From a virus, in IMG/VR virus record IMGVR_UViG_3300031918_000730, positions 15,875-79,874 of that record: 64,000 nucleotides of DNA; one strand, written 5' to 3'. The translations under genes and the position numbers were made by a program. Positions 6,093 through 63,985 of this stretch are shown one piece after another. The notes beneath the pieces were generated by a model. That model saw only the letters and a list, made by a program, of their open reading frames with translations. It had not been told where the DNA came from and did no database searches. Position 1 is the stretch's first letter, and each line of letters starts with the position of its first letter.

Positions 6093-6834
6093 TTTGATAC
6101 TCGAAGGATACAACATAAAAGGCAAGGGATCGATTGCCGATTATCAATCAGAAAACAAATTGAAGCCCGTGTTCGAAAGCATAATGGGTGGAAATGAAAA
6201 GCGCCTAAAGCTGGAAGGCACAGCAATCCTCTGTGAAGTAGAAGGTATAAATGGCCGAATCTACTCTACCAGACATATGGATAGGCAGGCTAGGAAGTTT
6301 ACCAAAGACTACATTGAGACATTCAACTCCCTTGGAGAATTGAATCACCCTGCAGTGACCTCCGAAGGCGAACACATCCTATTACCAGTAACCGAAATTA
6401 ACCTTGAGAAGGCTTGCCATCTAATCGAGAAGCTCTATATGCAGGGCGACGATATGAAGATCAAGTCTAGGGTTATTACTGACTTGCCATGTGGAGCTAT
6501 TATTGCATCCTTGGTGAAGAATGGTATCCCTGTTGGTAATTCCCTCAGAGGTCTAGGTTCGGTATATGAGCGTAACGGACGACTATTCGTTGCAGACGAC
6601 TATCAATTGATCACTGTCGACATCGTGGGTAGACCTTCATACGGTAGACCAGCAATGCTACACGCAATCACAGAGTCCATCAACTCCCACGAAATCCCCA
6701 TACTAAATGAAGCAGTTGATAGGGCTGTTCGTGAGTTCAAGCGTGAAATGGATTACAATACTAGAACACACAACATCACCCACGAGACTGAGTACTACTC
6801 AATCAACAGATTACTAGCGGCACTAAAGGCTTAA
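6085..6834 (+). CDS. gp21: prohead protease (T4 gp21-like)
   Basis: NGRIY, LGELNHP, SLRGLGS, DIVGRPS motifs. Confidence 0.92.
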   Translation: MPNLILEGYNIKGKGSIADYQSENKLKPVFESIMGGNEKRLKLEGTAILCEVEGINGRIYSTRHMDRQARKFTKDYIETFNSLGELNHPAVTSEGEHILLPVTEINLEKACHLIEKLYMQGDDMKIKSRVITDLPCGAIIASLVKNGIPVGNSLRGLGSVYERNGRLFVADDYQLITVDIVGRPSYGRPAMLHAITESINSHEIPILNEAVDRAVREFKREMDYNTRTHNITHETEYYSINRLLAALKA

Positions 6835-7559
6835 TGATGTCAAAAAACCCCCCAAGTCAAGCAGACTTAGAAGCAGAATACAGGGAGAAATTCGAAACCC
6901 TCAAGGAGGACATGAATCGACAGGTTCAGGCATTCATTGCGGAATCTATTATCAAGAATTCTTTTGAGTCTCCTGAGATGAAGGCCCAAGTCGACGTGTA
7001 CAAGCCTATCGTCGAATCTGTGGTAAAGGCTCTCAAGGATAGTGGAATATTGAACGCCAGTAAGGGCGGGACAGAATTGCCAGATGAAGTCGTCGGCGTG
7101 ATAACCGAGCAGACAGAAGTGATTAACAACCAGTCGAAGAAGATTAAGGAGCTAAAAATGCGCATGAAACTATATGAAATGATTACTGAGAATCTCGCGG
7201 GACTCGATAAGGAAATCATAAGGGAAGCTGTAACTAAGTTTCAGGGAGAGGATAGTCTAAGTGAAGATGACCTACTCAAGAAACTAACTAGCTATATCAG
7301 CAATAGAAAGCCATCATCTAAGACTGTCCAGTTTGAGGCAATCAATACTGATATTGACGAAGTCGATGCTATCCTAGAGGGAACTGCAGGAAAAGGTGCA
7401 TCTGGTAAGTTTAGTCCTAAAAAGAAAATCAATATGCCCGGAATTAGACCTAGGGTAGTTACTGAATCAGTAGAGGTTAGAATGCCAGATGAAGAGGGTA
7501 ATGTAGAATTAGACCCCGCTGGCGAATTCATGAGAGACTTTGGACATATCGGCACCTAA
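6834..7559 (+). CDS. gp22: prohead scaffold (T4 gp22-like)
   Basis: Coiled-coil, acidic, many I/L/V-x-E sites; lies between protease and MCP. Confidence 0.75.
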   Translation: MMSKNPPSQADLEAEYREKFETLKEDMNRQVQAFIAESIIKNSFESPEMKAQVDVYKPIVESVVKALKDSGILNASKGGTELPDEVVGVITEQTEVINNQSKKIKELKMRMKLYEMITENLAGLDKEIIREAVTKFQGEDSLSEDDLLKKLTSYISNRKPSSKTVQFEAINTDIDEVDAILEGTAGKGASGKFSPKKKINMPGIRPRVVTESVEVRMPDEEGNVELDPAGEFMRDFGHIGT

Positions 7560-7721: not shown

Positions 7722-9053
7722 ATGTCAAATACACTATACTCTAAGCATGGTTCACTCATGCGCAAGTGGGCACCAGTCATCGAGTCGACTCAGGTCGGTC
7801 GTAAGGTTGAAGGCACCCAGCAGGCGGCAGTATTGTCTGTCTGTCTTGAGAACCAGTACAAGCTGAATAAGGGCTACTTGCCAGAATCTCAGAACGTGAC
7901 TTCTGATATGGCAACCTTCCAGCAGTACGCACTACCAATCGTTCGCCGTATGCTCCCAGAGCTTTTGGCAACCAACGTGACTCAGGTCCAGCCTTTGACT
8001 GGCCCTACCGGACTTGCATATGCAATGCGTTTTGCATACGACGACGGTAATCCATTGTATGATGGTAACGGTAACTTCATCGGAAACGAAATGGGTTACA
8101 ACACCATCAAGCCTCAGTTCACTGGCCGTGGTACTTCTGCCGCTCCTTCTGCTTTCACCACTGGACAGGGCGAATTGCTCTCCAACTACTCTGAAGTAGC
8201 TGGCCAGAATACTTTGCAGAACCTCGGTTCCGCAAATGCACCAGACGGTACTCAGATTGCTCGTGGTAAGTTGGTTGTTGAGTCGAAGGCTGTCAAGGCT
8301 GGAACTCGCGCCATCAAGACTGCTTACACTCTCGAACTCCAGCAGGATCTCGCCGCTGTTCACGGACAGGACATCGAGACTCTCATGATGGAAGGTTTGC
8401 AGTACGAACTTCAGCAGGAACTCGACCGCGAGTTGCTCATCAGAATGCGCTCTGCCGCAATCAACACTGCACTGGGTGGAGCCGCTCCATTCACCATCGA
8501 CGTGACCCCTAACGCAACCTCCGCAGGTAGCGTGCTTGCAGGTGACGGACGCTGGTCGCAGGAGAAGTTTGCAAACGTCGTGAATGCAATCATCGCCGCC
8601 GCTAACTACCTACGTCGCACCACTCGCCTTGGTCCGGGTAACTTTGCAATCGTCTCTCAGGACGTTGCAACTGCACTCCAGTCCTTGAACACTGGTGTCT
8701 TCACTGCTAACACTGCAGACGTTGACGGTACTGTAATGGGTATCAAGATTGGAACTCTCCACGGTTCCAAGATCGACATCTACGTCGATACCTTCGCAAG
8801 CAACAGCTACGCGCTCGTTGGTTACAAGGGTCAGAAGCCGGGACACGCTGGTATCATCTATCTTCCTTACATTCCTCTGGTCGTCCAGAAGACTGTCGGT
8901 TCCGAAGATGCATCGCCTCGTATCATCCTCAAGACTCGTTACGCAATCCTTGACAACTTGTTCGGTTCGGGCTTGTTCTACCGTGAGATTCGTTTCACTG
9001 GTCTGAACGGTTACTTCGGTAACGTGTTCGAGAACATCACCAACTTGTACTAA
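7722..9053 (+). CDS. gp23: major capsid protein (T4 gp23-like)
   Basis: KWAPVIE, VQPLTGPTGLAYAMR, TLELQQDLAAVHG, YLPYIPL, KTRY motifs; strong codon bias. Confidence 0.97.
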   Translation: MSNTLYSKHGSLMRKWAPVIESTQVGRKVEGTQQAAVLSVCLENQYKLNKGYLPESQNVTSDMATFQQYALPIVRRMLPELLATNVTQVQPLTGPTGLAYAMRFAYDDGNPLYDGNGNFIGNEMGYNTIKPQFTGRGTSAAPSAFTTGQGELLSNYSEVAGQNTLQNLGSANAPDGTQIARGKLVVESKAVKAGTRAIKTAYTLELQQDLAAVHGQDIETLMMEGLQYELQQELDRELLIRMRSAAINTALGGAAPFTIDVTPNATSAGSVLAGDGRWSQEKFANVVNAIIAAANYLRRTTRLGPGNFAIVSQDVATALQSLNTGVFTANTADVDGTVMGIKIGTLHGSKIDIYVDTFASNSYALVGYKGQKPGHAGIIYLPYIPLVVQKTVGSEDASPRIILKTRYAILDNLFGSGLFYREIRFTGLNGYFGNVFENITNLY

Positions 9054-9159: not shown

Positions 9160-9501
9160 ATGATCGACATTCATACTGGAATCTGTGCTGAAGACGCAAT
9201 CATTCTGAAGACTCGCAGACTCAACGCCGCACTTCTGAACGACGAGCACTTCGAAGCGTTCTACATTGGATACTACGACCGAATCAACGAAGAACTGGAT
9301 GATCGCAAGTATAATAAGGTCGACTCGGTAAATACCATCCTCGAATTTTTCTATCACATCGGATACAGGTTTTCCGATAATGAAATCTACCTTTCCGGAC
9401 TGGTACGAAAAAGCCTTCCGGGGTTGGAAGGCTTCAAGAAGTCGATCATTACCTATCTTGATCGAATGAATATCGTAGAGTATTACGAACGGGAGAAGTA
9501 A
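9160..9501 (+). CDS. hypothetical early protein
   Basis: 113 aa; GGGGG SD; own -35/-10 promoter. Confidence 0.65.
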   Translation: MIDIHTGICAEDAIILKTRRLNAALLNDEHFEAFYIGYYDRINEELDDRKYNKVDSVNTILEFFYHIGYRFSDNEIYLSGLVRKSLPGLEGFKKSIITYLDRMNIVEYYEREK

Positions 9502-10292
9502 GAAAGGGATTCGGCGAAAGCCTCCATGAACACTCTCTCAGATTCTAACATATGATTAGTCTGGTGATTCACGAATACGTCACTAGGCTTATCCTTTTCA
9601 CTAAACTTAGGTACGTTAGAATTCAAAGCCTGAATTTCTCCGCGACTCTTGTTTAGATTATCCGCAATGGTATCGAGAATTTCGATCAATCCATCGTCGC
9701 TACCCAAAAGAACATCCTTGTAACCCTTTAGAGTTGCCTGATATGGGAACTCTGGATTATAGAACAATTCAATAGCATCCTTCAGGTGAGTTACTTCCTG
9801 CTTAAACGCTTCAATAGGCGACGAAGTACTCTTCTCAGATACGCCAACTATGATTTCCTTGATGAATGTGGCTAATCGATGGCCGGGATTCTTCTTAGCC
9901 TTGGCGAGTGCATTCTTCAAAATTCCATCGGTTGATGGATTTGATAGGAACTTATACTTGGAATACAAAGACGCAATATGCTGTTTGGCATTTGGGTCAT
10001 TTTCTGCTTTGTATTTCTCCATCAAGTCTTGCCTGATCCTAGTGATCTTATCCTCGAAGGTAGATAGTGCGTTGAACCTTACTGGGTCTGCACTATTTTC
10101 CTTCTCCATAGCCATGAGGGTCTTGTCTGCAATTCTACCTAGAGTGTTCGCGACTAATGCGGAAGACTCTAGGAAAGTCCTATTACCTACACATTCAGCT
10201 AGGAACTTAGGATAGCCTAGCTTCATCTTAGGGGTTGCAGATTCGAATATTGCCTTTGGCATCATCTCATCGAGTGTAAAAGTAGTTCTCAT
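9483..10292 (-). CDS. hypothetical late protein, probable head-internal protein
   Basis: Perfect TATAAATA upstream; IFES, FLES, MLES sites resembling gp21 cleavage sites. Confidence 0.6.
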   Translation of the reverse strand: MRTTFTLDEMMPKAIFESATPKMKLGYPKFLAECVGNRTFLESSALVANTLGRIADKTLMAMEKENSADPVRFNALSTFEDKITRIRQDLMEKYKAENDPNAKQHIASLYSKYKFLSNPSTDGILKNALAKAKKNPGHRLATFIKEIIVGVSEKSTSSPIEAFKQEVTHLKDAIELFYNPEFPYQATLKGYKDVLLGSDDGLIEILDTIADNLNKSRGEIQALNSNVPKFSEKDKPSDVFVNHQTNHMLESERVFMEAFAESLSYFSRS

Positions 10293-10308: not shown

Positions 10309-10316
10309 TATTTATA
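10309..10316 (-). promoter_or_regulatory. canonical T4 late promoter TATAAATA
   Basis: Reverse complement of TATTTATA; GAGG SD follows. Confidence 0.75.
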
Positions 10317-10338: not shown

Positions 10339-10899
10339 TTAGACAGGAATACTGGGGAACGCATTTCCGAAGTAGGTGTTGAGTCCCTTATAGACATTCT
10401 TGATCACCAATAGTTCGGACGGCACAATTAGATTAGGGAACTCGTCTAGTATGCTGATGTTATCAACATCGCTACTGTCAGTTACAAATACACATGAATA
10501 CGATTCAGTTGCGAACATATCAACATATACAGTTACGAATTTATTCAATACTGCAATAGCGTCAGCTTCTTCGTCATATGAACCTGTAATCACGTCAATC
10601 ATGAACTCACGATCCGAATCATCTCCATTACAACTGATTGACTGTAAGGCAGTCGCAACATCTGGAGAGACTAATACAGAAACGAACATTCTATTCTTGC
10701 AATCACGAACAACCGAAGCCGCAGTTACTATCTGAGTGAATATCGTCTTAAATTTCTCCTGCGACCATCTTCCCATAAATGCTTCTCCGGGAGTCACATC
10801 GAGGATTTCAGGCTCACCTGCGAATGAATTTACGATACGTCCTAGTTCGAGAACTGCGGTAGTGTGTAGATCTAGGTTTTTTTCTTTTGTAGTTGTCAT
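10339..10899 (-). CDS. truncated major-capsid-protein paralog (approximately the A-domain only)
   Basis: Shares DVTP, GRWSQEKF, VSxDVATALQS, YVDxFA and GLNxYFGNxF, in order, with the MCP at 7722-9053. Confidence 0.85.
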   Translation of the reverse strand: MTTTKEKNLDLHTTAVLELGRIVNSFAGEPEILDVTPGEAFMGRWSQEKFKTIFTQIVTAASVVRDCKNRMFVSVLVSPDVATALQSISCNGDDSDREFMIDVITGSYDEEADAIAVLNKFVTVYVDMFATESYSCVFVTDSSDVDNISILDEFPNLIVPSELLVIKNVYKGLNTYFGNAFPSIPV

Positions 10900-10905
10900 G
10901 TATAT

Positions 10906-10914
10906 ATTGTAGCA
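10906..10914 (-). promoter_or_regulatory. extended -10 promoter TGCTACAAT, leaderless
   Basis: 6 nt before the ATG at 10899. Confidence 0.7.
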
Positions 10915-10920
10915 GTCTAC

Positions 10921-10926
10921 TAAATA
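10921..10926 (+). promoter_or_regulatory. late promoter (CTAAATA), leaderless
   Basis: 5 nt before ATG 10932. Confidence 0.7.
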
Positions 10927-10931
10927 TTGGA

Positions 10932-11687
10932 ATGTTCATTTCAAGAGATCAGGCTAAGGAATTAATTTTGTTGGAGTTGGGCGCTCCGATGGTGGATATT
11001 AATCTGAAGCTACTTCCAGATGCAATTAGCCCAATGAATCATCTAGACAAGGCTATCAATGAGACACTCGACCTATTCTTCAGATATAATACTGACGAGT
11101 CAGTGTATCAGACTTGGATAGTAATACCTGCAGTCCCAAATCAGTCGATATATAAGGTACCTCAGAACATTGAAGGTGTCGTGGAAATGTGGCCTTCTAC
11201 TGGAGGTATTCTACAATCACCGTTTATGATGGTCGACACTAGTTCAATGGAAACACTGATCTCACTGAACGCCAACTTTAACGAGTGGGACATTGTATCA
11301 TATACTGCATCTAGACTGTTCCTTGCCGAAGTAAACAAGGCAGTAGGTGAACAATTCTACCCTAAGCTAATCGTTAATGCGCAAGGTGAAAAGGAACTTC
11401 ATATCTTCCCTCCACCTCGCAACACTGGATTCCCTAGGGCAATAGTCGGTAGGGCATATCGAAGAGCAGAATTAGGTAGCGTATACGGCCACCCATTCTT
11501 CGTGAAGATCGCATCCGGTCTTCTGATGCAGATTTGGGGTCGTTCGTTGGGTAAGTTTAGTAGGACTATGCCCGGAGGTGGAACTGTAAATGCATCTGAC
11601 ATCAAGAATGACGGTAAGGAACTATTCGATACTTGGTTCACAATGCTAAGGAACGAGTCGGCACCTCCCCTAGGGGCGGCGTACTAA
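10932..11687 (+). CDS. gp13: neck/head-completion protein (T4 gp13-like); start revised to 10932
   Basis: LILLELGAPMVDINL, QIWGRSLGKF and MPGGGTVNA match gp13 motifs. Confidence 0.88.
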   Translation: MFISRDQAKELILLELGAPMVDINLKLLPDAISPMNHLDKAINETLDLFFRYNTDESVYQTWIVIPAVPNQSIYKVPQNIEGVVEMWPSTGGILQSPFMMVDTSSMETLISLNANFNEWDIVSYTASRLFLAEVNKAVGEQFYPKLIVNAQGEKELHIFPPPRNTGFPRAIVGRAYRRAELGSVYGHPFFVKIASGLLMQIWGRSLGKFSRTMPGGGTVNASDIKNDGKELFDTWFTMLRNESAPPLGAAY

Positions 11688-12046: not shown

Positions 12047-13273
12047 TTAAAACTCCAAATTAGAATGTGATTCCCAGCCAGTGTCGATAGCATATGCGTC
12101 GAGTAGAGTCTTATTCTTACCTAGAACCTTCTTCAGGTTTGCAATTGCCTTCTTGCGAATCCTGTCATATTCATTTGGTTGAATATTCAACTCAGTGATG
12201 ATTTCTTCCTTACTCTTAATCTCACTACGGGGGTTTATCCCGAAGTGATACTTCAAGTAATACTGTTCGGCGTCATTGTTCACAGATTCAACGTAATTAC
12301 GGATCAACGATCTCAGGTCTTTGATTGTGACGTTGTCGGACTCGTCGATGATGTAATTGTCGATGAGGTTATCTTCGAAGGAGGCACCTACCGATTGCTG
12401 GTTCTTATGTTCGTGGAACCTAGCGTCAGTGTCGATCTGATAGTAAGCGAAGGACACATCAAGATTAGAAAGGCTAGATACCTTCTTCTTCATATGAACA
12501 ATTATCTCTTCTTCCATCGGATCTCTATTGAGCCTATGTCGTAGTTCCTTGCGGATTTTCTCGACTTCCTTAGCCTGCTCCCGGACATTGACAGGTATTC
12601 TGATTAGTGAATCCTTGTCGGCGATAGCCCTATTGATAGACGCTTTGATCCATTGAGATGCGTAGGTGCTGAATTTGATACCTAGGCTACAATTGAAGAG
12701 TTCGATTGCCCTGCGAAGACCTAGAGTGCCCTCGGAGAACAAGTCTTTCACTGTCAAATCTACAGTGTTCTTATACGACGACAATATTCGGAGTATGATT
12801 TTCACGTTCGACAGGTATATCTTGTCAATATGGTACTGCATGTCCTTCTGCATGACGTTGAAAATCATGTTCGGGGTTCCATTTGACTCGTATGCGGTCA
12901 GGACTTCACGGTAGATGTCGTATGATACATTGAAGTTGTCGGAGTATTCAATGATCTGCTCCCTTGTCATGTCAGCGATAGATGAAACAAACGACAAAGT
13001 CATCTTAGAGTTGTAGTCGTAGTCCTCTGCGCAGACAAAGGTGTCTGTCATGAATGCTTCATGTGCATTGCCAGTGGCAATGAGGTGCGTTACCACTTGC
13101 AGGAACTTGGCGAATGCAGTGTCATCTGCGAGACAGCTACGGAAGATCCTGTTCTTGGTCGCGTTGATATTGGAAAATACGAAAAATTCCTGCTCCTTGA
13201 GCAGAATTGGATTTCTAGCGACAGTGTTTTCCAACGAACTCTTGAGTTCGTTGAACTCTACTAGGAAGGCCAT
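12047..13273 (-). CDS. phage-encoded RpoD/sigma70-family sigma factor
   Basis: Region 2: DLFSEGTLGLRRAIELF...GIKFSTYASQWIKASINRAIAD. Region 3.0: LIRIPVN. Region 4 is degenerate. Confidence 0.92.
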   Translation of the reverse strand: MAFLVEFNELKSSLENTVARNPILLKEQEFFVFSNINATKNRIFRSCLADDTAFAKFLQVVTHLIATGNAHEAFMTDTFVCAEDYDYNSKMTLSFVSSIADMTREQIIEYSDNFNVSYDIYREVLTAYESNGTPNMIFNVMQKDMQYHIDKIYLSNVKIILRILSSYKNTVDLTVKDLFSEGTLGLRRAIELFNCSLGIKFSTYASQWIKASINRAIADKDSLIRIPVNVREQAKEVEKIRKELRHRLNRDPMEEEIIVHMKKKVSSLSNLDVSFAYYQIDTDARFHEHKNQQSVGASFEDNLIDNYIIDESDNVTIKDLRSLIRNYVESVNNDAEQYYLKYHFGINPRSEIKSKEEIITELNIQPNEYDRIRKKAIANLKKVLGKNKTLLDAYAIDTGWESHSNLEF

Positions 13274-13302: not shown

Positions 13303-13893
13303 TCAAAATACCTTCGGGAAAATAGCCTCCATCAACTTGGTCAGGCCACCGAAGCGCACGCTCTCCGACTTATTCCTAAAGTAATTTAAGGTCTGCGCAT
13401 CTGTCAACCCCATAATGAAAGAAGTGTCGATGTATAGCGACACCACCTCAGAAATTCGCTTCTCGAAACTCAAGTCGTCGGAGTCGAGAGAGCTAGGGTT
13501 GTCGAAGCGTTCAGATATTACCTGTAGGAATCTGGTTGTCGAGTTAATGATCGCTTCTTGAGATTCGTCATTTAGAGTGTTCACTTCATCTACGTCGACG
13601 AGTTCGACCTCAATGTCGTTGTCTTTACTGTATTTCACAAATACGTCTAAGAAATACGAGCAACCATTAAGATATGCTTCAATCTGCGCCCCGAAGATTT
13701 CACCGTAGATCTTCTGGGCTTTGTCGTTCTTATCGTCGTCTTCTACGAATGAACTACATTCTCCGATGATGTACTCTGAGAGCTTCTCCTTCACTTCCTG
13801 AAAATCCACCCCGACCTGAAGCATCGCGATTGAGATCTTGTTGGATGAATCTGCGTACTCTTCTTCTGTCAGTGGATTATCTTCATTGCTCAT
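13303..13893 (-). CDS. acidic hypothetical protein; start revised to 13893 (MSNEDNP)
   Basis: TGCTACAAT box 7 nt upstream; the longer ORF-track start overlaps the divergent gene. Confidence 0.65.
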   Translation of the reverse strand: MSNEDNPLTEEEYADSSNKISIAMLQVGVDFQEVKEKLSEYIIGECSSFVEDDDKNDKAQKIYGEIFGAQIEAYLNGCSYFLDVFVKYSKDNDIEVELVDVDEVNTLNDESQEAIINSTTRFLQVISERFDNPSSLDSDDLSFEKRISEVVSLYIDTSFIMGLTDAQTLNYFRNKSESVRFGGLTKLMEAIFPKVF

Positions 13894-13900
13894 ATTTTTG

Positions 13901-13909
13901 ATTGTAGCA
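13901..13909 (-). promoter_or_regulatory. extended -10 promoter of the sigma operon
   Basis: TGCTACAAT on the minus strand. Confidence 0.7.
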
Positions 13910-13939: not shown

Positions 13940-14554
13940 GTGATTGATCTATTAGATGTGGTGCTCGTGAAGTACACTGGCCTCAGCGGTCGCGCCACTG
14001 AAGTAAACAGCATATCCTACAAGACTGTGGATTCCGCCACATACCTTGACAGTATAGATTCGATCAACTATGCTGTTAGATCACCATATGGTACAAGACC
14101 AAAAAATCTATCATACGAAAACTGGATAAAATTCAAGCTAAGGGTTAATCGGAAGTATAGGAAATGCCTCAAAGGCACTGCTATGCAACTTCCATGTGTT
14201 GACCTCGGATGCGACGACATGCAAGTGTATACTAAGATCAAGAACGTGAAACTATGGATTAAGTTCCAATGTTTCGTAGACTATGAAGTCAAGTATGCGT
14301 TCGCTAAGGAATATACTGCACCAGTCAGAACAGATAGCTCAATTGCAGTGAATAACATTAGGGCAATTCAGAACCCAAAATACAACAGTGAATATGTAGT
14401 CGAGATCCCAATTGGAAATCAAGACGGTGAAATGTTACTAGGTGAACTAGACTTGTATGAGAGTGACTTTTTCGTCTCGCAATTAATTGCGTATAAGGGA
14501 TGTCAGTTTCAGAATAGCATTATGAAGGTCTGCATCCACTACGACTTAGCTTAA
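13940..14554 (+). CDS. hypothetical late (structural?) protein; start revised to GTG 13940
   Basis: In-frame GTG at the same spacing from TAAATA as other late genes. Confidence 0.55.
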   Translation: MIDLLDVVLVKYTGLSGRATEVNSISYKTVDSATYLDSIDSINYAVRSPYGTRPKNLSYENWIKFKLRVNRKYRKCLKGTAMQLPCVDLGCDDMQVYTKIKNVKLWIKFQCFVDYEVKYAFAKEYTAPVRTDSSIAVNNIRAIQNPKYNSEYVVEIPIGNQDGEMLLGELDLYESDFFVSQLIAYKGCQFQNSIMKVCIHYDLA

Positions 14555-17483: not shown

Positions 17484-18052
17484 TGCATGTTATTCTTAAT
17501 TCTCAATATATTTATTGCGTTACTTATTCTATATGAGATTGAATCGATTCTAGCCATAGCTTTTTCAATGACAGAAAGAACAGCACGAATGTTATTGATC
17601 TTCTCCTCTAACTCAATATGCTCAGGATTGATAGTGATGAGGTTTTTGATTTCCTTATCATTTAGAAGAACTCCATTATGGACCTCTGGATTCCTCTTAT
17701 ATTCTTGAGTGATGAGAGCCTCTAGAGCTAATAGCTTCTTGGTATTCTTTTCCAAGAATCGATTATACTCATTATGTCTACGGACCCATTTAGACTCAAT
17801 GATGTTTATACTAGCATTGTAGTTATATAGAAGGTCTAGATCAGTAGGTACTGCGGTATCTTCCTCAAACTCATTCATCAGTTGCGTGACTGTGTGAGTC
17901 TGGTTTCTCTCGAACTCTATGATCGATGGAGATGAGAATTTCAGGTTTAGCTCTACAGTTATGCCTGCTCTGATCTCGTTGTAGGTAGCTGGAGCCTTGA
18001 GTTCTACTTCACCCTTATGCACCTTAGATCTAGTTTTCTTTTCCGTTTCCAT
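17477..18052 (-). CDS. uvsY: recombination mediator UvsY-like
   Basis: Helical protein next to uvsW; C-terminal IDSISYRISNAINI resembles the UvsY C-terminus. Confidence 0.55.
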   Translation of the reverse strand: METEKKTRSKVHKGEVELKAPATYNEIRAGITVELNLKFSSPSIIEFERNQTHTVTQLMNEFEEDTAVPTDLDLLYNYNASINIIESKWVRRHNEYNRFLEKNTKKLLALEALITQEYKRNPEVHNGVLLNDKEIKNLITINPEHIELEEKINNIRAVLSVIEKAMARIDSISYRISNAINILRIKNNMQW

Positions 18053-18058
18053 ATCTCT

Positions 18059-18067
18059 ATTTTAGCA
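18059..18067 (-). promoter_or_regulatory. extended -10 promoter TGCTAAAAT, leaderless
   Basis: 6 nt before the ATG at 18052. Confidence 0.65.
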
Positions 18068-31926: not shown

Positions 31927-31950
31927 AAGCCTCCGAAAGGGGGCTTTTTT
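31927..31950 (+). terminator. intrinsic terminator
   Basis: AAGCCTCC-GAAA-GGGGGCTT plus T run. Confidence 0.85.
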
Positions 31951-31953
31951 ATT

Positions 31954-31962
31954 TGCTATAAT
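31954..31962 (+). promoter_or_regulatory. extended -10 promoter TGCTATAAT (leadered)
   Basis: Perfect TGnTATAAT; AAGGAG SD before uvsX. Confidence 0.75.
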
Positions 31963-39071: not shown

Positions 39072-39110
39072 CTACTAAGTTACGCATTTTCGTATCCCAT
39101 AAATACATGA

Positions 39111-39743
39111 ATGCAAGCCACTTCGATAAGAAAATGCCCACGATGTAGTAGAGAATTAGCGTTATCTAGTTTCTATGTGAATAAGAAAACTGGTAGAGTA
39201 TATTCGTATTGTAAGCAATGTAACAATGAAATGAGTAGAAATAGAGATAAAGAAAAAACAAAGAAATATAATAAACTAAAATACTTAAAGAATAAGGAAG
39301 AGTATAATAAGAATAGCTCTGAAAATTATTACGCGAATCAACAGAAATACATTGACTATGCCATTAAGAGAGAAGCCATTAGGAAACTTGAGGAGCCTAA
39401 GTATGCATTCACTAGGAGACTTAGGGATAGGATCAGAAAATCGTTCAGGCGACTAAGTGTAAATGGAAAAGTTAAGTCATGTAAAGAATATGGAATCGAC
39501 TTCGAAGAAATCTATTTACATTTAGGCGAAAAGCCTAGTGAGAATTTCGAATTAGATCACATTATTCCATTAAGTGTTTTTAACCTTGACATCGCTGAGC
39601 ATGTCAAGTTAGCTAATTCTAAGTACAACTTGAGATGGATTAGTTGCTCAGATAATAGAAAAAAGCACACTACGATCCCAGCAATCGCATATGAAGATGA
39701 TAAACTTAGAGATATTTTAGTGGCTATAGGTTTGTTAGAATAG
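39111..39743 (+). CDS. free-standing HNH homing endonuclease with N-terminal zinc finger
   Basis: CPRC...CKQC, ELDHIIPLS...NLRWISCSDNRKK; AT-rich; late promoter at 39100-39105. Confidence 0.82.
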   Translation: MQATSIRKCPRCSRELALSSFYVNKKTGRVYSYCKQCNNEMSRNRDKEKTKKYNKLKYLKNKEEYNKNSSENYYANQQKYIDYAIKREAIRKLEEPKYAFTRRLRDRIRKSFRRLSVNGKVKSCKEYGIDFEEIYLHLGEKPSENFELDHIIPLSVFNLDIAEHVKLANSKYNLRWISCSDNRKKHTTIPAIAYEDDKLRDILVAIGLLE

Positions 39744-39747
39744 GTAC

Positions 39748-40548
39748 ATGCGCATATTAGGACTTGACTTAAGTATTACATCCCCCGGCTTCTGCATAAT
39801 GGACGTTAATGAGGACGATGGATATAGAATCCGACAAATCGACCTTCATGGCTTCACGAAGACTGACAAGTGGAAGTTTGAAGGAGATGGCCTAATAATC
39901 CACCAATTCCCGAAAGACTATAACCAACACCCTTCACACTACAGACCTACACTGGTGTACGATATAGTGGAACCTTACCTGAAAGAGATTGACTATGTAG
40001 CCATCGAAGACTACGCTTTCGGTGCTAAGGGTAAGGTATTTGACTTGGCGGAATTCGCAGGGTCTATGAAAAACTACATGTACGATAGAAGAATACCTAT
40101 CAAGAAGTTCCCCCCTATGACAGTGAAGCTATGTGCGGCAGGTAGCGGAGCGGCTGACAAGGTACTCATGGGAATGAGCTTCAAGGCATCTAGCCTATCT
40201 AAGTTGGTAAATCCGTATTTGTTCATGCTCCCTGAGTACGATAACCCGCAAGAGGACTTGGTAGATGCAATCTATATGGCAAATACTCTAAGGGCTGAAA
40301 TATGCTACATGGCAACAGGAGCTTTTCCAGTTGATCTCGGAATGAATGTGAATAATTGCGCAACTGCAATTCTATTGGGTAAGAAGGGGGCTAAGACTAA
40401 GCCTTCAATTGAACATCCACTCATCACATTCGGAGCATTCACTAGAGTTAAGAAAGAGAAGAAGGTCAAGAAGAGTGACGCCGAGGTTGAAGTAAAGGTA
40501 TCTAAGAAACGAGAACCTAAGAAGAAGCTGATAGTGCCCAAGCAATAA
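39748..40548 (+). CDS. RuvC-like Holliday junction resolvase
   Basis: ILGLDLSITSPG, AIEDYAF, LAE, KLCAAGSGAADK, DLVDA. Confidence 0.85.
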   Translation: MRILGLDLSITSPGFCIMDVNEDDGYRIRQIDLHGFTKTDKWKFEGDGLIIHQFPKDYNQHPSHYRPTLVYDIVEPYLKEIDYVAIEDYAFGAKGKVFDLAEFAGSMKNYMYDRRIPIKKFPPMTVKLCAAGSGAADKVLMGMSFKASSLSKLVNPYLFMLPEYDNPQEDLVDAIYMANTLRAEICYMATGAFPVDLGMNVNNCATAILLGKKGAKTKPSIEHPLITFGAFTRVKKEKKVKKSDAEVEVKVSKKREPKKKLIVPKQ

Positions 40549-45190: not shown

Positions 45191-45203
45191 ACTAAATATC
45201 AAT

Positions 45204-45701
45204 ATGTCGCGTCAATTTGAAGATCAAGATTTACCTCCGCAGAGGCCGAAAAGTGAAGGTGGATGGCATCAAGGTGTCTACAAGGTAGTAAATTACAAGA
45301 AGTATATGTCAACTAAGCCCCCTATCTTCAGATCGAGTTGGGAAGCTAATGTAATGTACTTATTTGATATGAATGAGTTTGTAGTTAAATGGGGTTCGGA
45401 AGTAATAGAAGTACCATATATCAACCCAATTGACGGTAAGGCTCATAGGTATTTCACTGACTTCTATGTAGAGTTTAAGAATAAGAATGGTGAGTATGTG
45501 AAGTGGGTGATTGAGGTGAAACCTGAATCTAAGCTAAAGCCACCTAGACAGCAAAAGAGAACAAAGACATGGGCTTATCAGATGAATGAATATGTCATCA
45601 ATACTGCCAAATGGAATGCGGCTAGAGCCTTTTGTAAACATAAGGGATGGGAATTCAAGATATTCACTGACGTAGAGATTAAAATGTTGGCAGGCCACTA
45701 G
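45204..45701 (+). CDS. gp4: head completion nuclease (T4 gp4-like, TnsA-type)
   Basis: FRSSWE, WGSE, HRYFTDF, IEVKP, NTAKWNAA; late promoter at 45193-45198. Confidence 0.9.
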   Translation: MSRQFEDQDLPPQRPKSEGGWHQGVYKVVNYKKYMSTKPPIFRSSWEANVMYLFDMNEFVVKWGSEVIEVPYINPIDGKAHRYFTDFYVEFKNKNGEYVKWVIEVKPESKLKPPRQQKRTKTWAYQMNEYVINTAKWNAARAFCKHKGWEFKIFTDVEIKMLAGH

Positions 45702-46297: not shown

Positions 46298-46714
46298 ATG
46301 GACCATACTAAGAAAACAACTTTCGCTGGATTCGTTAACATTGATAAGTCCAATAAGTATTGGATGGAAGGGCACTTCGAACACGGAGAAGACGCCCCTA
46401 CACTATTCAGATTCAATACCAAGGAAGAGCGAGATACTGTTCAAGAGGTTGCCCAGTCGTATCTCGATAATTGGGGATGCGATGCGCTTGAACTTGTAAT
46501 ATTCGAAGCAAAGGCAAGACATGTGGTGACTTTGAAAAAAAGGACCGAGAGTGAAATCACATTAGCTAGGCAGAAATCTAAGAGTGATGCCGAAGCAAAG
46601 CGTGAACGCGCAGTCGCTGAAGTTGCTGTAGTGTCTCAGGTTGAGACAGGCACTCAACCAGACACCGCCCCTAAGAAGAGGGGTAGGAAACCCAAGACTA
46701 GTGCTACAATATAG
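46298..46714 (+). CDS. hypothetical protein with C-terminal AT-hook-like motif
   Basis: PKKRGRKPK. Confidence 0.6.
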   Translation: MDHTKKTTFAGFVNIDKSNKYWMEGHFEHGEDAPTLFRFNTKEERDTVQEVAQSYLDNWGCDALELVIFEAKARHVVTLKKRTESEITLARQKSKSDAEAKRERAVAEVAVVSQVETGTQPDTAPKKRGRKPKTSATI

Positions 46715-46716
46715 GC

Positions 46717-47043
46717 ATGAGCACAAAACTTAACCTGTCACAGCGCCTCTGGCTTATCGATTCTATCGGTAGCCTTCCATCAACCACTGAGAGAATCAAG
46801 GAAGCCGATGGATTCATCGCAATCCTTGCACCTAACGACGCCGAACTGAGTGTCGAAGGTTTGAATTTCACCGCAGACGAGAATGGTCTACAGTGGGATA
46901 CTGCAGTTGAAGCCGAGAAGGTTCCTGCACTTGAAGTCGAAATCCCAGAGATCCTATACTCTGCACTGAAGGATAAATTTTCAGTTCAGATGAAAGATCC
47001 TACTGGACTTGACTTGGAAATGATCGACCTACTCTCCCTGTAA
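46717..47043 (+). CDS. hypothetical protein
   Basis: 108 aa; TGCTACAAT at 46702-46710, 6 nt upstream. Confidence 0.65.
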   Translation: MSTKLNLSQRLWLIDSIGSLPSTTERIKEADGFIAILAPNDAELSVEGLNFTADENGLQWDTAVEAEKVPALEVEIPEILYSALKDKFSVQMKDPTGLDLEMIDLLSL

Positions 47044-53202: not shown

Positions 53203-53230
53203 AAGGCCGACCTTAGGGTTGGCCTTTTTT
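53203..53230 (+). terminator. intrinsic terminator ending the NAD operon
   Basis: AAGGCCGACC-TTAG-GGTTGGCCTT-TTTT. Confidence 0.88.
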
Positions 53231-53248
53231 GCGTGCTACAATATTCGC

Positions 53249-53752
53249 ATGGAACAACACACTACAATCAAGACCGACCTCAATGGTACAATCCGCAACC
53301 GTGGCTTCATTCGCGCACAGGATAGCGCAGTGGCGGCTACTGAGGGCTTCACGATGCCCCGCAGGTCTACCAAGCTGTCCGCAGGCTACGACCTCTTCAA
53401 CAACACCGGAGAGGCCATTGTACTAAAGGCAGGCACTACTTCAGACAAGATCTCGACTGGCGTCATTGCTGTGATGAGATCAGATGAATACCTTGCCGTC
53501 TTTGTGCGTAGTGGACATGGATTTAAGTTCAGTGCTCGACTCGCCAACTCGACAGGTATCATCGATGCAGATTACATGAAGGAAATCTTCCTCAAGATCC
53601 GCAATCCGTATGATACTGACATCGTAATTCCCGCAGGCGAGGCAATCGCACAGGGTATTTTCATGAACTACCTCACCACCGACGACGACTCGGAAACTGT
53701 AGGCGGAGATAGAACTGGCGGATTGGGTTCAACCAACGCAACGAAAGGCTAA
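53249..53752 (+). CDS. dut: trimeric dUTPase; start revised to 53249
   Basis: SAGYDL, RSG, GIIDADY, AQG, RTGGLGST; TGCTACAAT at 53234-53242. Confidence 0.92.
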   Translation: MEQHTTIKTDLNGTIRNRGFIRAQDSAVAATEGFTMPRRSTKLSAGYDLFNNTGEAIVLKAGTTSDKISTGVIAVMRSDEYLAVFVRSGHGFKFSARLANSTGIIDADYMKEIFLKIRNPYDTDIVIPAGEAIAQGIFMNYLTTDDDSETVGGDRTGGLGSTNATKG

Positions 53753-56004: not shown

Positions 56005-56034
56005 AAAACTCAAAAATCCGAACTAAATATTTGG

Positions 56035-57057
56035 ATGGTGAGAATATCAGAAGATGTCGTAAATGTAGTAGGTGATTCACTAGAGGCTTGTTTGTATTCC
56101 AGATACTTAGCCTCTAAGCCGAACATCACAAAGGTTAACCACTATACTACTGGCGAGTATGGTGGTTTTTATTTTGATAAGAATAAGGATTCAGCGTACT
56201 GCGCACTATTCCTCACTGCAGGTCAACTGGATAAGATCCTGAAGTTCCTACCTGACCTAGATTTCCGACAGGTCACCGAGAACCACCTGAAGGTTCCAGT
56301 TAAGAAGATTAAGTTCAGCAGTCAATATGACGAGTATGTCGCATATCCGCTCAATAAGAGTAGCTTCGAAGTTGAAATGGACTACAATGACAATGTCTTG
56401 AAGTCTTTCACTCCTGAGGAATTCATAGCCGAGTATAAAGAGCACAAGAATATCACTAAGCTAATGAAGACGATATTCTCTGATCAACTATACCTCAACA
56501 TCATGAAAAAGGTCGGATGTAATCAATGGAACACTAACCAGAGTCAGTTAGACGCTGGGCGATTGTACAGTATGCTACACCTAGGTCAACTTACTAGTGA
56601 AACTCCCTTCGAGTATTACCATCCAGTCAATGGAGTATCTGCAATGTGCGAGGATCTACTTTCAGATCCTAAGATTTCAGTTCACGTCGATAGTAGGAAG
56701 AACATAAAGGCTAGGACCAAGGCCCAAACTAATTTAGTTACTTACCTATTCGAATACATTGACTACTACATGGACTTCATGTTCGGTGGATTCGAGTATA
56801 TGAAGGGACATACCGACATCCATAGTAAGAGCATATCGGAGTATAAGTACTTTAGAGTATACACTCCATTCGACAAGAAGTACTATGCTTACTTTGGAGT
56901 GGACTCGACTACATATAAGGTGTGGAATGAGCAGGTCGCCATTAGCTCACACTCATACGGTAGAATGGCACTCATCCCAAGTCAGGCTAACTATAGAAAA
57001 CTAAACGACTATCGCAAAATTTCACTAGTCAGTAGAAATTTTAAGGTTCTCATCTAG
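56035..57057 (+). CDS. degenerate UDP-galactopyranose mutase (Glf)-like protein
   Basis: Colinear Glf-like blocks (YPLN, NQWN, HPVNGVSAMCEDLL) but GxGxxG replaced by GDSLEA; late promoter at 56024-56029. Confidence 0.55.
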   Translation: MVRISEDVVNVVGDSLEACLYSRYLASKPNITKVNHYTTGEYGGFYFDKNKDSAYCALFLTAGQLDKILKFLPDLDFRQVTENHLKVPVKKIKFSSQYDEYVAYPLNKSSFEVEMDYNDNVLKSFTPEEFIAEYKEHKNITKLMKTIFSDQLYLNIMKKVGCNQWNTNQSQLDAGRLYSMLHLGQLTSETPFEYYHPVNGVSAMCEDLLSDPKISVHVDSRKNIKARTKAQTNLVTYLFEYIDYYMDFMFGGFEYMKGHTDIHSKSISEYKYFRVYTPFDKKYYAYFGVDSTTYKVWNEQVAISSHSYGRMALIPSQANYRKLNDYRKISLVSRNFKVLI

Positions 57058-58228: not shown

Positions 58229-58278
58229 TACAACTCCTTATGTTGAACTCAATTATTTAGTATTCCATAAATATCAAT

Positions 58279-58626
58279 ATGAAGCTCGGGACATTTATAC
58301 AGAGGATTTTCTGCGAACCAGACGGGACTCCGTCGAATAAAAGACTAATCGCTAGTTATTCTGTATTGGTGTATTCGCTCGTGATGTTGTCTGCTTTTTT
58401 CTTAGCACTCCCTCTCACCGAGAGCGTAATTCATATGGCCGACGTATTACTCGGAAGCGCAATGGGTACTTATGTGGTTGGTAGATTTGCAGAAAAGAAG
58501 CCATTACTACAAGTCGAAGAACCTGAGCCAGAACCAGAGCCGACTCCTAAAAGAGTAAAGAAGGTAGTTGACACTGAAGAGGAAACTCCAGAAGAGTCAA
58601 CAGAAGATTCAGTCAAGAAACAGTAA
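58279..58626 (+). CDS. holin-like membrane protein
   Basis: Two TM segments after SNKR, charged C-terminal tail, late promoter at 58268-58273, next to the endolysin. Confidence 0.65.
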   Translation: MKLGTFIQRIFCEPDGTPSNKRLIASYSVLVYSLVMLSAFFLALPLTESVIHMADVLLGSAMGTYVVGRFAEKKPLLQVEEPEPEPEPTPKRVKKVVDTEEETPEESTEDSVKKQ

Positions 58627-60203: not shown

Positions 60204-60978
60204 TTATGTTCAGCCGATATTTGCACCTAATGAAGAAATGACGATCAGGAATCTAACAAGTCTGAAATCATTCTTCGACTATTACGAAAGCCATAATTAC
60301 AATTTCAAGTGTGTATTTGGTGGATATTCTAGTGACGATGCTAACTGGGATCGCATCTCAAAGTATATTCAATCTAGAAACAAACAAGCTATCATCTACA
60401 GATTCGATAAGAACTATGGAAAGGCTCATGTCGTAAATCACTTAGTGAGTGCATTTCTAGACGATGAGACGTATTTCCTTACTGCAGACTCAGACATTAT
60501 ATACAAGATGGACGAGGATGACATAATTAGTAGACTGATCGAAGCGTTCGCAGAAGCAAATAGGCTAAATCTAACACCCGCATTGATCTCCTTATTTCAG
60601 GAGGTCAATAATTGCCAGATGCTTGAGTTGTGCTATGAGAATAGGTACTACTATCACGGAGAATACAACTTCGAAATGTTCTGTCACCCGAATGGGAGTG
60701 GTGGAGTTGCGGGTGGGTGTCTATTCATTTCTAAGAAATTCTGGGATCGAGTTGGCGGCTATAGGGTACTTGGAGTATATGCAGGTGATGACGCTAACCT
60801 GATGCAGGACGCATATAACAACGGCTACAAATTCCTAATGTCGAATTCAGTGAGATGCATACACCCAAATGAGACGATGCCAGCATATAGGGAATGGAAG
60901 ATTAAGGTGTGTCCTACTGTTCAGGAGTTGGATGTAGCTGTAGACGATGCCAACAATTTCTGGAAAATGAGGGGCTAA
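60193..60978 (+). CDS. glycosyltransferase family 2-like
   Basis: NYGKA, TADSDI, GGCLFI..KFWDRVGGY, YAGDD. Confidence 0.8.
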   Translation: MRVSYVQPIFAPNEEMTIRNLTSLKSFFDYYESHNYNFKCVFGGYSSDDANWDRISKYIQSRNKQAIIYRFDKNYGKAHVVNHLVSAFLDDETYFLTADSDIIYKMDEDDIISRLIEAFAEANRLNLTPALISLFQEVNNCQMLELCYENRYYYHGEYNFEMFCHPNGSGGVAGGCLFISKKFWDRVGGYRVLGVYAGDDANLMQDAYNNGYKFLMSNSVRCIHPNETMPAYREWKIKVCPTVQELDVAVDDANNFWKMRG

Positions 60979-60986
60979 ATACTCAA

Positions 60987-61508
60987 ATGCCATACAGTCA
61001 TCCAGCACACTACACTAATGTAGTAAACCTAATCAGAACAAACTTCAACCCTAGCGAGACTTCAATTATTGATATTGGATGTGGCGCAGGTGTATATAGA
61101 GATCTCCTTCCAGAATATGTAATGGACGGAATTGAAGTATATGAGAAGTATATTAACGACTTCAAGTTGCGCGAGAAGTATCGCACAATCTTCAACGAAG
61201 ACGTTGTCGAGTTCAAGTTCACAGGTAAGAAGTATACTCTCGCAATCATGGGCGACATCTTAGAACACCTCAGCGTCGAAGATGCTAAGAAGGTTCTGAA
61301 TGCAATCAAGAAGGCAAATATTTCCCTCATTGTTCAGGTTCCTTACCTATATGAGCAGGGGGTTTATGACGGAAATGTACACGAGATCCATCTACAGCCA
61401 GACCTTACCCATGAAGTATTTCTGTCGAGATATGAGGAATATGGATTCAGTTTCCTAGTAGAGGATTCTGTTTGTGGGGCTTACTATATTTTCCGTAAGG
61501 GAGAGTAA
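60987..61508 (+). CDS. class I SAM-dependent methyltransferase; start revised to 60987
   Basis: IIDIGCGAG, GDILEHL; CTAAATA 5 nt upstream. Confidence 0.85.
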   Translation: MPYSHPAHYTNVVNLIRTNFNPSETSIIDIGCGAGVYRDLLPEYVMDGIEVYEKYINDFKLREKYRTIFNEDVVEFKFTGKKYTLAIMGDILEHLSVEDAKKVLNAIKKANISLIVQVPYLYEQGVYDGNVHEIHLQPDLTHEVFLSRYEEYGFSFLVEDSVCGAYYIFRKGE

Positions 61509-63640: not shown

Positions 63641-63664
63641 TAGATGAGCCACCCTCTCGGAGGG

Positions 63665-63673
63665 TGCTACAAT
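63665..63673 (+). promoter_or_regulatory. extended -10 promoter TGCTACAAT, leaderless, overlapping a hairpin
   Basis: 6 nt before ATG 63680; CACCCT-CTCGG-AGGGTG hairpin immediately upstream. Confidence 0.7.
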
Positions 63674-63679
63674 AAGCGT

Positions 63680-63985
63680 ATGCGAAAGCGTCTTAATATA
63701 GAGAGGGACGAGGAGATGTATCATACCCTCGTCCGTTTGCTCGTTGAAGTTACAGAATCTCTTCGGAGGGATTTTTCGGCAATGGCGGACGGCAATTCGT
63801 ACTCTACTGTTCGTAGAGTTCGAAAGCATCTCACAAATATGCGCAAAATTACGAAAGAGATGAGCGCGGCTACGAACTATAAGAAGGAGAAGATAGTTGA
63901 AGCTCAGTGGGGTGGAACAGTTCCATCGAAATACTACAGAGCAAACAAGAAAAGGAAGGCTGAATCAGAACCACTGATTCTGTAG
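63680..63985 (+). CDS. basic protein, histone H1-like Hc1-family candidate; start revised to 63680
   Basis: DFSAMADGN...RRVRKHLTNMRKITKEM resembles the Hc1 core D....GNK.A..R.RK. Confidence 0.45.
   Translation: MRKRLNIERDEEMYHTLVRLLVEVTESLRRDFSAMADGNSYSTVRRVRKHLTNMRKITKEMSAATNYKKEKIVEAQWGGTVPSKYYRANKKRKAESEPLIL

Follow-up and report, generated by a model that had tools for sequence, protein, structure and literature searches.

A gp23-type capsid-protein paralog reduced largely to the A-domain, with a non-late promoter, in a giant T4-like phage from peat

Known relatives and the parent phage

To date, almost every known role of the HK97 fold has been that of a shell builder. In phage T4 it is represented by the major capsid protein (MCP) gp23 (PF07068; PDB 7VRT, 5VF3, 6UZC) and by gp24 (PDB 1YUE), a structural, late-expressed paralog of near-full length (~430 aa) that is encoded near the MCP gene and forms pentamers. 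The closest known architectural analogues of the protein described here are the cellular Family 4 A-domain encapsulins (PF08967/DUF1884), for instance PF0899 (2PK8), which consist essentially of a stand-alone HK97 A-domain. Their genes follow an enzyme gene in two-gene operons of archaea or thermophilic Bacteroidetes. The A-domain helices are the main inter-subunit interface of HK97 facets, and such A-domains have been hypothesized to form facets and to bind enzymes (PMC8346489).

Capsid proteins are common alarm signals for bacterial immunity. Phages possess competitive anti-sensor proteins such as DSAD1, which blocks DSR2. We know of no phage anti-sensor inhibitor that is a truncated copy of the trigger itself. 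Several defense systems are triggered by capsid proteins, including CapRel, Thoeris and CBASS (reviewed in PMC13728456). Neither capsid-derived decoys nor phage A-domain-only MCP paralogs are described in the literature that we searched in full text.

The window analyzed here (the whole stretch of 64,000 nucleotides) comes from a 79.9-kb IMG/VR virus record, estimated to be ~26% complete, of an uncultured giant T4-like phage from peat. Four peat metagenome runs from 2019 have contigs that contain the segment 9480-11700 with full nucleotide identity; these runs correspond to four coded studies but possibly to one campaign and possibly to the source sample, and no RNA run holding this segment was found among the listed sequencing runs. 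The parent gene (7722..9053, + strand) encodes a gp23-type MCP of 443 aa (Pfam Gp23, E 2e-73; phmmer against T4 gp23, E 8e-31). Its closest counterparts in the cultured-phage collection, from Pelagibacter phage HTVC008M and cyanophages, are ~33% identical. Five further IMG/VR contigs encode MCPs that are 86-92% identical and share a conserved gene order: portal, protease, scaffold (6834-7559 in the window), MCP, a 113-aa gene, a 269-aa gene on the opposite strand, an adaptor-like gene, a 120-aa gene and a sigma factor. One of the five (L005, also coded G001) is a complete genome of 306252 bp with terminal repeats. A seventh, shorter contig (L007) was excluded from the count of paralog loci because it stops within the MCP gene and the paralog region cannot be read.

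The complete relative contains a single Gp23 match, and therefore the clade is without a gp24-type vertex paralog; its MCP presumably also builds the pentamers. The comparison with gp24 made in the initial annotation thus holds to the extent that here, too, an MCP paralog is encoded near the MCP gene, and goes no further in a clade that has no gp24-like gene.

Homology and architecture of the paralog

The open reading frame at 10339..10899 (- strand, stop codon included) encodes a shortened gp23-type MCP paralog of 186 aa, as identified by BLASTP, Pfam and structural modeling. This protein is a true homolog of the C-terminal half of the MCP. BLASTP against the phage's own MCP aligns paralog residues 30-184 with MCP residues 256-439, in order, at 30% identity (E 3e-15). 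The Pfam Gp23 profile (PF07068) matches with 33.6 bits, above the curated cut-off of 24.4, over profile positions 196-314 of 376, and PHROG 138 (major head protein) matches with E 1.6e-6. The motifs DVTP and GRWSQEKF occur in both proteins, and three further motifs form pairs between paralog and MCP: VSPDVATALQS/VSQDVATALQS, YVDMFA/YVDTFA and GLNTYFGNAF/GLNGYFGNVF. The initial annotation had proposed this in-order alignment, these shared motifs and a location on the strand opposite to the MCP gene, and it was right on all of them. In an all-against-all comparison of ORFs from the 79.9-kb record we found no other capsid-fragment gene; the same comparison led us to reject a split or permuted gp24, the neighboring 269-aa protein having no similarity to the N-terminal half of the MCP. 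The cultured-phage collection contains no match to the region by megablast or to the paralog by tblastn, and the closest clusters in the Protein Atlas are short unnamed viral proteins (scores 0.90-0.92), which serve as leads only.

We examined which parts of the capsid protein are kept by comparing the secondary structure of an AlphaFold model of the paralog (alignment of 37 sequences; pLDDT 73.6, pTM 0.74) with that of an MCP model. The paralog model aligns with T4 gp23 residues 288-521 at Z 12.1 (rmsd 3.6, 153 residues) and with T4 gp24 at Z 8.4-8.5. In a structure search against 48,161 solved chains the best 50 entries were all HK97-fold capsid or encapsulin proteins. The retained elements are the C-terminal two thirds of the spine helix, the next strand, both A-domain helices, the A-domain sheet and the last strand with the tail. 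Only MCP residues 228-443 have a counterpart in the paralog; residues 1-227, which comprise the propeptide, the N-arm, the insertion/E-loop region and the first strands, have none, and the P-domain beta-hairpin (MCP E378-392/E399-411, YLPYIPL...KTRY) is missing as well. Compared with T4 gp23, the paralog has the same A-domain helices and sheet but keeps only the C-terminal 40% of the fold, without the propeptide, N-arm, insertion domain and linkers, or P-domain hairpin.

Along the sequence, the first retained element is a spine-helix stub at residues 4-26 (10822..10890, - strand), which corresponds to MCP ~228-250 in the models and the alignment. The A-domain core follows at residues 43-138 (10486..10773, - strand), as delimited by the alignment, the models and superposition on 2PK8. 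It contains helix a5, which starts with GRWSQEKF, a strand, helix a6 (VSPDVATALQ) and a beta-sheet with VYVDMFAT; residues 91-113 within this core are an acidic loop that is hypervariable. In place of the P-domain hairpin there is a paralog-specific linker of 26 residues, 139-164 (10408..10485, - strand), with the motif N-x-S-I-L-[DE]-E-F-P. The last strand and the tail GLNTYFGNAF occupy residues 165-186 (10342..10407, - strand) and match the clade-specific MCP tail. The form GLNxYFGNxF is shared by the paralog and the MCPs of its own clade only, which argues for an origin by partial duplication of the clade's own, resident MCP gene and not by capture of a foreign one. As for the earlier view of a stand-alone A-domain lacking the N-arm, the E-loop and the YLPYIPL...KTRY segment, the two AlphaFold models agree on the losses and the A-domain assignment is correct; the protein is not purely an A-domain, given the added spine-helix stub.

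Of the parts of a complete HK97 fold (N-arm, E-loop/insertion-domain linkers, P-domain sheet and A-domain), the paralog has the A-domain. It is without every element that joins subunits and capsomers into a shell, and both structure and alignment, with the N-terminal half and the P hairpin lost, support the earlier proposal that it would be unable to form one; we regard it as predicted to be shell-incompetent. The same losses bear on the idea that the product is a minor virion component derived from the MCP, such as a vertex, decoration, plug or internal head protein. Its gene is an MCP paralog located in the head and neck gene block, and gp24 provides a precedent for structural MCP paralogs. 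We nevertheless consider a virion role improbable: the paralog has no N-arm, no insertion/E-loop region and no P-domain hairpin to lock it into the lattice, its promoter is not a late one, and its gene is missing from the complete related genome. With 186 aa versus ~430 for gp24, it is not a near-full-length paralog.

Residues 45-172 of the paralog model superpose on the Family 4 encapsulin PF0899 (2PK8; 88/94 residues, Z 6.4, rmsd 3.2). Like the Family 4 proteins (PMC8346489, Andreas & Giessen 2021), the paralog is essentially an A-domain, to which an N-terminal helix and a C-terminal tail are added, and for both, binding or oligomerization via the A-domain helices is proposed. The relationship is one of architecture: with E values up to 0.1 admitted, Gp23 is the sole Pfam family matched by the paralog, and PF08967 is not. 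In contrast to Family 4, its origin is independent, recent and from a gp23-type phage MCP, with the spine-helix stub and the MCP tail as extras, and its gene is not part of a two-gene operon downstream of an enzyme but stands in a phage head module, with its own replication-class promoter and with the adaptor-like gene and the late 269-aa gene on either side. The resemblance nevertheless raises the alternative that the paralog has been neofunctionalized in the Family 4 manner as a small oligomer, in which small rings or facets would stabilize or hold another protein of the phage or the host, with no recognition of capsid protein involved. The new conserved linker motif and the acidified surface of the paralog family would suit such a change. 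However, no conserved enzyme partner gene was found beside the paralog among the loci of the relatives, the 269-aa neighbor has a late promoter of its own and persists where the paralog is absent, and the best conserved residues of the paralog are exactly the MCP-like ones. We therefore hold this alternative to be rather unlikely.

Conservation between paralog and MCP is highest where the two A-domain helices start (GRWSQEKF and VSPDVATALQ). In the phmmer alignment VSPDVATALQ corresponds to T4 gp23 378-388, a stretch that includes N381 and A387. Both are sites of gp24-bypass mutations and lie at the interface between neighboring subunits in the capsomer core (PMC9546572). The charge of the protein has changed: pI is 4.3-4.8 in 7 of the 8 paralog sequences for which it was computed, versus 8.1 for the equivalent part of the MCP. 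We also co-folded the paralog with MCP residues 60-443. The score was 0.42, against 0.00 for the best of three controls, with at least 69% of contacts agreeing between runs and a partner pLDDT of at least 71. The mark that this score passes is passed by 58/80 solved complexes and by 2/110 mismatched pairs, and passing scores of up to 0.60 were obtained for only 7/80 solved complexes and for both of the passing mismatches; custom alignments were used, and these benchmark counts hold only roughly. The pass may reflect likeness to, or memory of, solved T4 capsomers, and the predicted paralog-MCP complex is weakly supported.

Promoter classes and the conserved locus

The neighboring genes of the head module carry late-type TAAATA promoters, namely the MCP, adaptor and 269-aa genes. 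The paralog does not: upstream on its coding strand there is no TAAATA, only TGCTACAAT, an extended -10 type promoter element at 10906..10914 (- strand), 6 nt before the ATG. The initial annotation had assigned this element to the class used by replication genes, and enrichment, the genes served and conservation at an ortholog all speak for that assignment. TGCTAYAAT occurs at 9 sites in the window versus 1.09 expected, and TGNTANAAT-N6-ATG 6 times versus 0.30 expected (10897-10914 and 18050-18067 on the - strand; 39733-39750, 46702-46719, 53234-53251 and 63665-63682 on the + strand). The genes behind sites of this class encode DNA polymerase, UvsX, primase, exonuclease, dUTPase and UvsY, and also an SbcD-like nuclease, glycosyltransferases and the sigma-factor operon (site at 13909). 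In the related contig L003, TGCTATAAT lies upstream of the paralog's ortholog, a protein of 30% identity, together with a Shine-Dalgarno leader.

No conserved -35 element was found at TGCTAYAAT-class sites, several of which are preceded by terminator-like hairpins. G+C-rich hairpins with T runs stand directly before TGCTAYAAT at 31930-31962, 53205-53242 and 63645-63673 (+ strand), and together with these sites they are terminator-promoter couples between replication genes. The sigma-factor operon (12047-13273 and 13303-13893, - strand) lies behind a TGCTACAAT-N7-ATG site, with the promoter at 13901-13909 (- strand). It encodes a 408-aa sigma-70 family protein (regions 2 and 3; PHROG 351) at 12047-13273 (- strand); the ORF upstream of the sigma gene probably starts at 13893 (MSNEDNPL...) and not at 14013, since the alignments of relatives begin there.

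TAAATA is depleted in the window (27 sites on both strands versus ~63 in shuffles), which is expected of a signal that is avoided outside promoters. Genes that carry it ~5 nt ahead of their ATG include those for the adaptor, a head-closure protein, an endonuclease VII-like protein and a UvsW-like helicase, and TAAATA-N4-7-ATG occurs 11 times versus 4.3 expected, including the + strand sites 2075-2088, 10921-10934, 39100-39113, 45193-45206, 56024-56037, 58268-58281 and 60976-60989. Because both promoter-like classes often adjoin the start codon, many leaderless mRNAs are predicted in this phage, including that of the paralog, where TGCTACAAT ends 6 nt before the ATG; the corresponding genes of the L003 relative have Shine-Dalgarno leaders. 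By analogy with T4, the promoter class suggests that the paralog is expressed before capsid synthesis. The extended -10 promoter as such shows neither early timing nor late shut-off.

The paralog and its own extended -10 promoter form a cassette between two divergent late promoters. On one side is TATAAATA at 10309..10316 (- strand), the late-type promoter of the downstream 269-aa gene (9483..10292), which accordingly has its own late signal and Shine-Dalgarno sequence; on the other is the TAAATA promoter at 10921..10926 (+ strand) of the divergent head-tail adaptor-like gene (10932..11687). In L003 the ortholog occupies the equivalent slot, flanked by the 269-aa and adaptor genes, and the gene that follows it again carries its own TATAAATA. 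The paralog is missing in four of the six related contigs that cover the region (L004, L005, L006 and L050). In these contigs, whose MCPs are 91-92% identical and among which is the complete 306-kb genome, the late promoters of the 269-aa and adaptor genes stand back to back, separated by ~45-50 bp. The paralog gene is therefore dispensable.

The sole constant neighbor of the paralog is the 269-aa gene, which is also present in the contigs without it. Neither the 269-aa gene (9483-10292, - strand) nor the 113-aa gene (9160-9501, + strand) has a family match, and for both, identity among the relatives is only 43-56%, as against 86-92% for their MCPs; judged by these identities they appear to form a fast-evolving pocket within the head module. 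In L004 (11872-12623) the adaptor-like gene matches as two pieces in different frames, joined at base 12354, where there is either a frameshift or an assembly error.

Evolution of the family and candidate roles

Searches of 5.8 and 1.8 billion proteins yielded a small family of 12 sequences of 183-192 aa, all intact, so the search for A-domain-only paralogs in related phages that had been proposed at the outset did find them, one in L003. Three subfamilies can be told apart. One is the window type, whose members share 70-84% identity with the protein of the window; the other two are the L003 type and P0009. Between subfamilies identity falls to ~30%, versus 86% for the MCPs, and the P-domain hairpin is missing in all three. 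Four candidates (P0014, P0018, P0024 and P0026) were rejected as members; they keep the P hairpin and look like MCP fragments. A metagenome scan with a degenerate pattern specific to the paralog gave six matches, all to unrelated proteins, and no further paralogs.

In the tree the paralogs form one group (SH-aLRT 98, with the caveat of long-branch attraction). Their branches measure ~1.5 substitutions per site versus 0.003-0.03 for the MCPs, so that by the tree the paralog evolves 50-100 times faster than the MCP. The paralogs are not nested inside the clade's MCPs, on branches too long for this to count.

Fast evolution of a truncated gene lost in several relatives could mean that the capsid gene was once partly duplicated and that what remains of the copy is decaying and without function. 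The initial annotation had named neutral decay as an outcome that would speak against a function, and we simulated neutral substitution of the window coding sequence. Runs carried to 84, 72 and 30% protein identity acquired one or more stop codons in 77%, 94% and 99.8% of cases, respectively, whereas all 12 known sequences are intact at 183-192 aa across ~70% protein divergence. Conservation is also uneven: within the window type, identity is 0.73-0.89 in core elements and only 0.48 in loop 91-113, while the linker motif N-x-S-I-L-[DE]-E-F-P is conserved across subfamilies. The promoter, too, is conserved at the 30%-identical ortholog in L003. We rejected the pseudogene on these grounds, and a remnant without function is highly improbable. 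Taken at the level of the alignments, the intact members, the uneven conservation and the linker motif show what we read as purifying selection on the altered protein. The paralog thus appears to be a functional, optional accessory gene.

If the protein is functional, a role close to home is modulation of the phage's own head assembly. The paralog would bind the MCP at the capsomer-core interface and hold, cap or time capsomers, or, in another version, bias pentamers versus hexamers in a clade lacking a gp24 vertex protein. The interface helices are kept, including the equivalent of the T4 gp24-bypass helix, the gene lies within the head module of a clade without a gp24-like gene, and the co-fold with the MCP, weak and possibly a memory of T4 capsomers as it is, exceeds its controls. 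These observations are set against the four relatives of six, including the complete genome, that have 91-92% identical MCPs but lack the paralog, against a non-late promoter among neighboring head genes that all use TAAATA, and against the rate at which the paralog evolves relative to its supposed partner. We consider such a modulator unlikely, and the role of assembly timer suggested initially is disfavored by the absence of the gene from these close relatives.

The reading that we favor, tentatively and at somewhat less than even probability, is that the paralog, soluble, acidic and unable to build shells, mimics the face of the capsomer core and works by competing for a binding partner, more plausibly in a conflict than in routine assembly. 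It would be made from the promoter class of replication genes, probably before or independently of the late genes, as a soluble acidic product that combines the capsomer-core (A) domain with a spine-helix stub and the MCP tail. Through molecular mimicry, the conserved A-domain face of this product, formed by the two A-domain helices, would be presented to a partner that usually recognizes this face on the MCP, and the product would compete with the MCP for that partner. There are two options for a conflict: the paralog may block a host sensor that binds the capsid protein, or it may cap the capsid protein of a co-infecting relative.

We favor a conflict role over housekeeping in the assembly of the phage itself, since relatives do without the gene and its sequence changes very fast. 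An optional, fast-evolving, non-late profile fits conflict genes better than it fits an assembly factor that travels with a near-invariant MCP, and contrasts on each count with a gp23-type MCP, which is also basic where the paralog is acidic. Both the decoy and the competitor-inhibitor roles possibly fit a profile that is accessory, fast-evolving and, as the promoter suggests, pre-late. If the MCP itself were the target, though, the mimic might be expected to be better conserved and to be co-inherited with this very conserved protein.

For the host-sensor option, the paralog has the indirect traits of a putative anti-defense decoy, being accessory, fast-evolving and equipped with a non-late promoter. 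It shares with anti-sensors of the DSAD1 type the concept of an early, accessory, fast-evolving protein that occupies the site of a structural protein on a sensor, the early timing of the paralog being suggested by its promoter. In the specific form of trigger mimicry, an early, cut-down copy of the capsid protein would occupy the host sensor without activating it, or would block the oligomeric state of the MCP that is sensed. A mimic of an immune trigger could itself set off the sensor, and we regard this specific form as conceivable though doubtful.

A selected, optional gene that retains only the capsomer core and is placed on a replication promoter class suggests a second life of the HK97 fold, as a soluble binder. 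The paralog is small and easily expressed, and its parent gene is adjacent, which makes the question of its partner directly testable. If the partner is the MCP, the paralog would be a natural inhibitor or regulator of capsid assembly. If it is a host sensor, a disarmed copy of the trigger would constitute a new principle of counter-defense. Should trigger mimicry prove true, this would be the first capsid-derived immune decoy, and one case of a wider, so far undescribed habit among giant T4-like phages of keeping stand-alone pieces of virion proteins.
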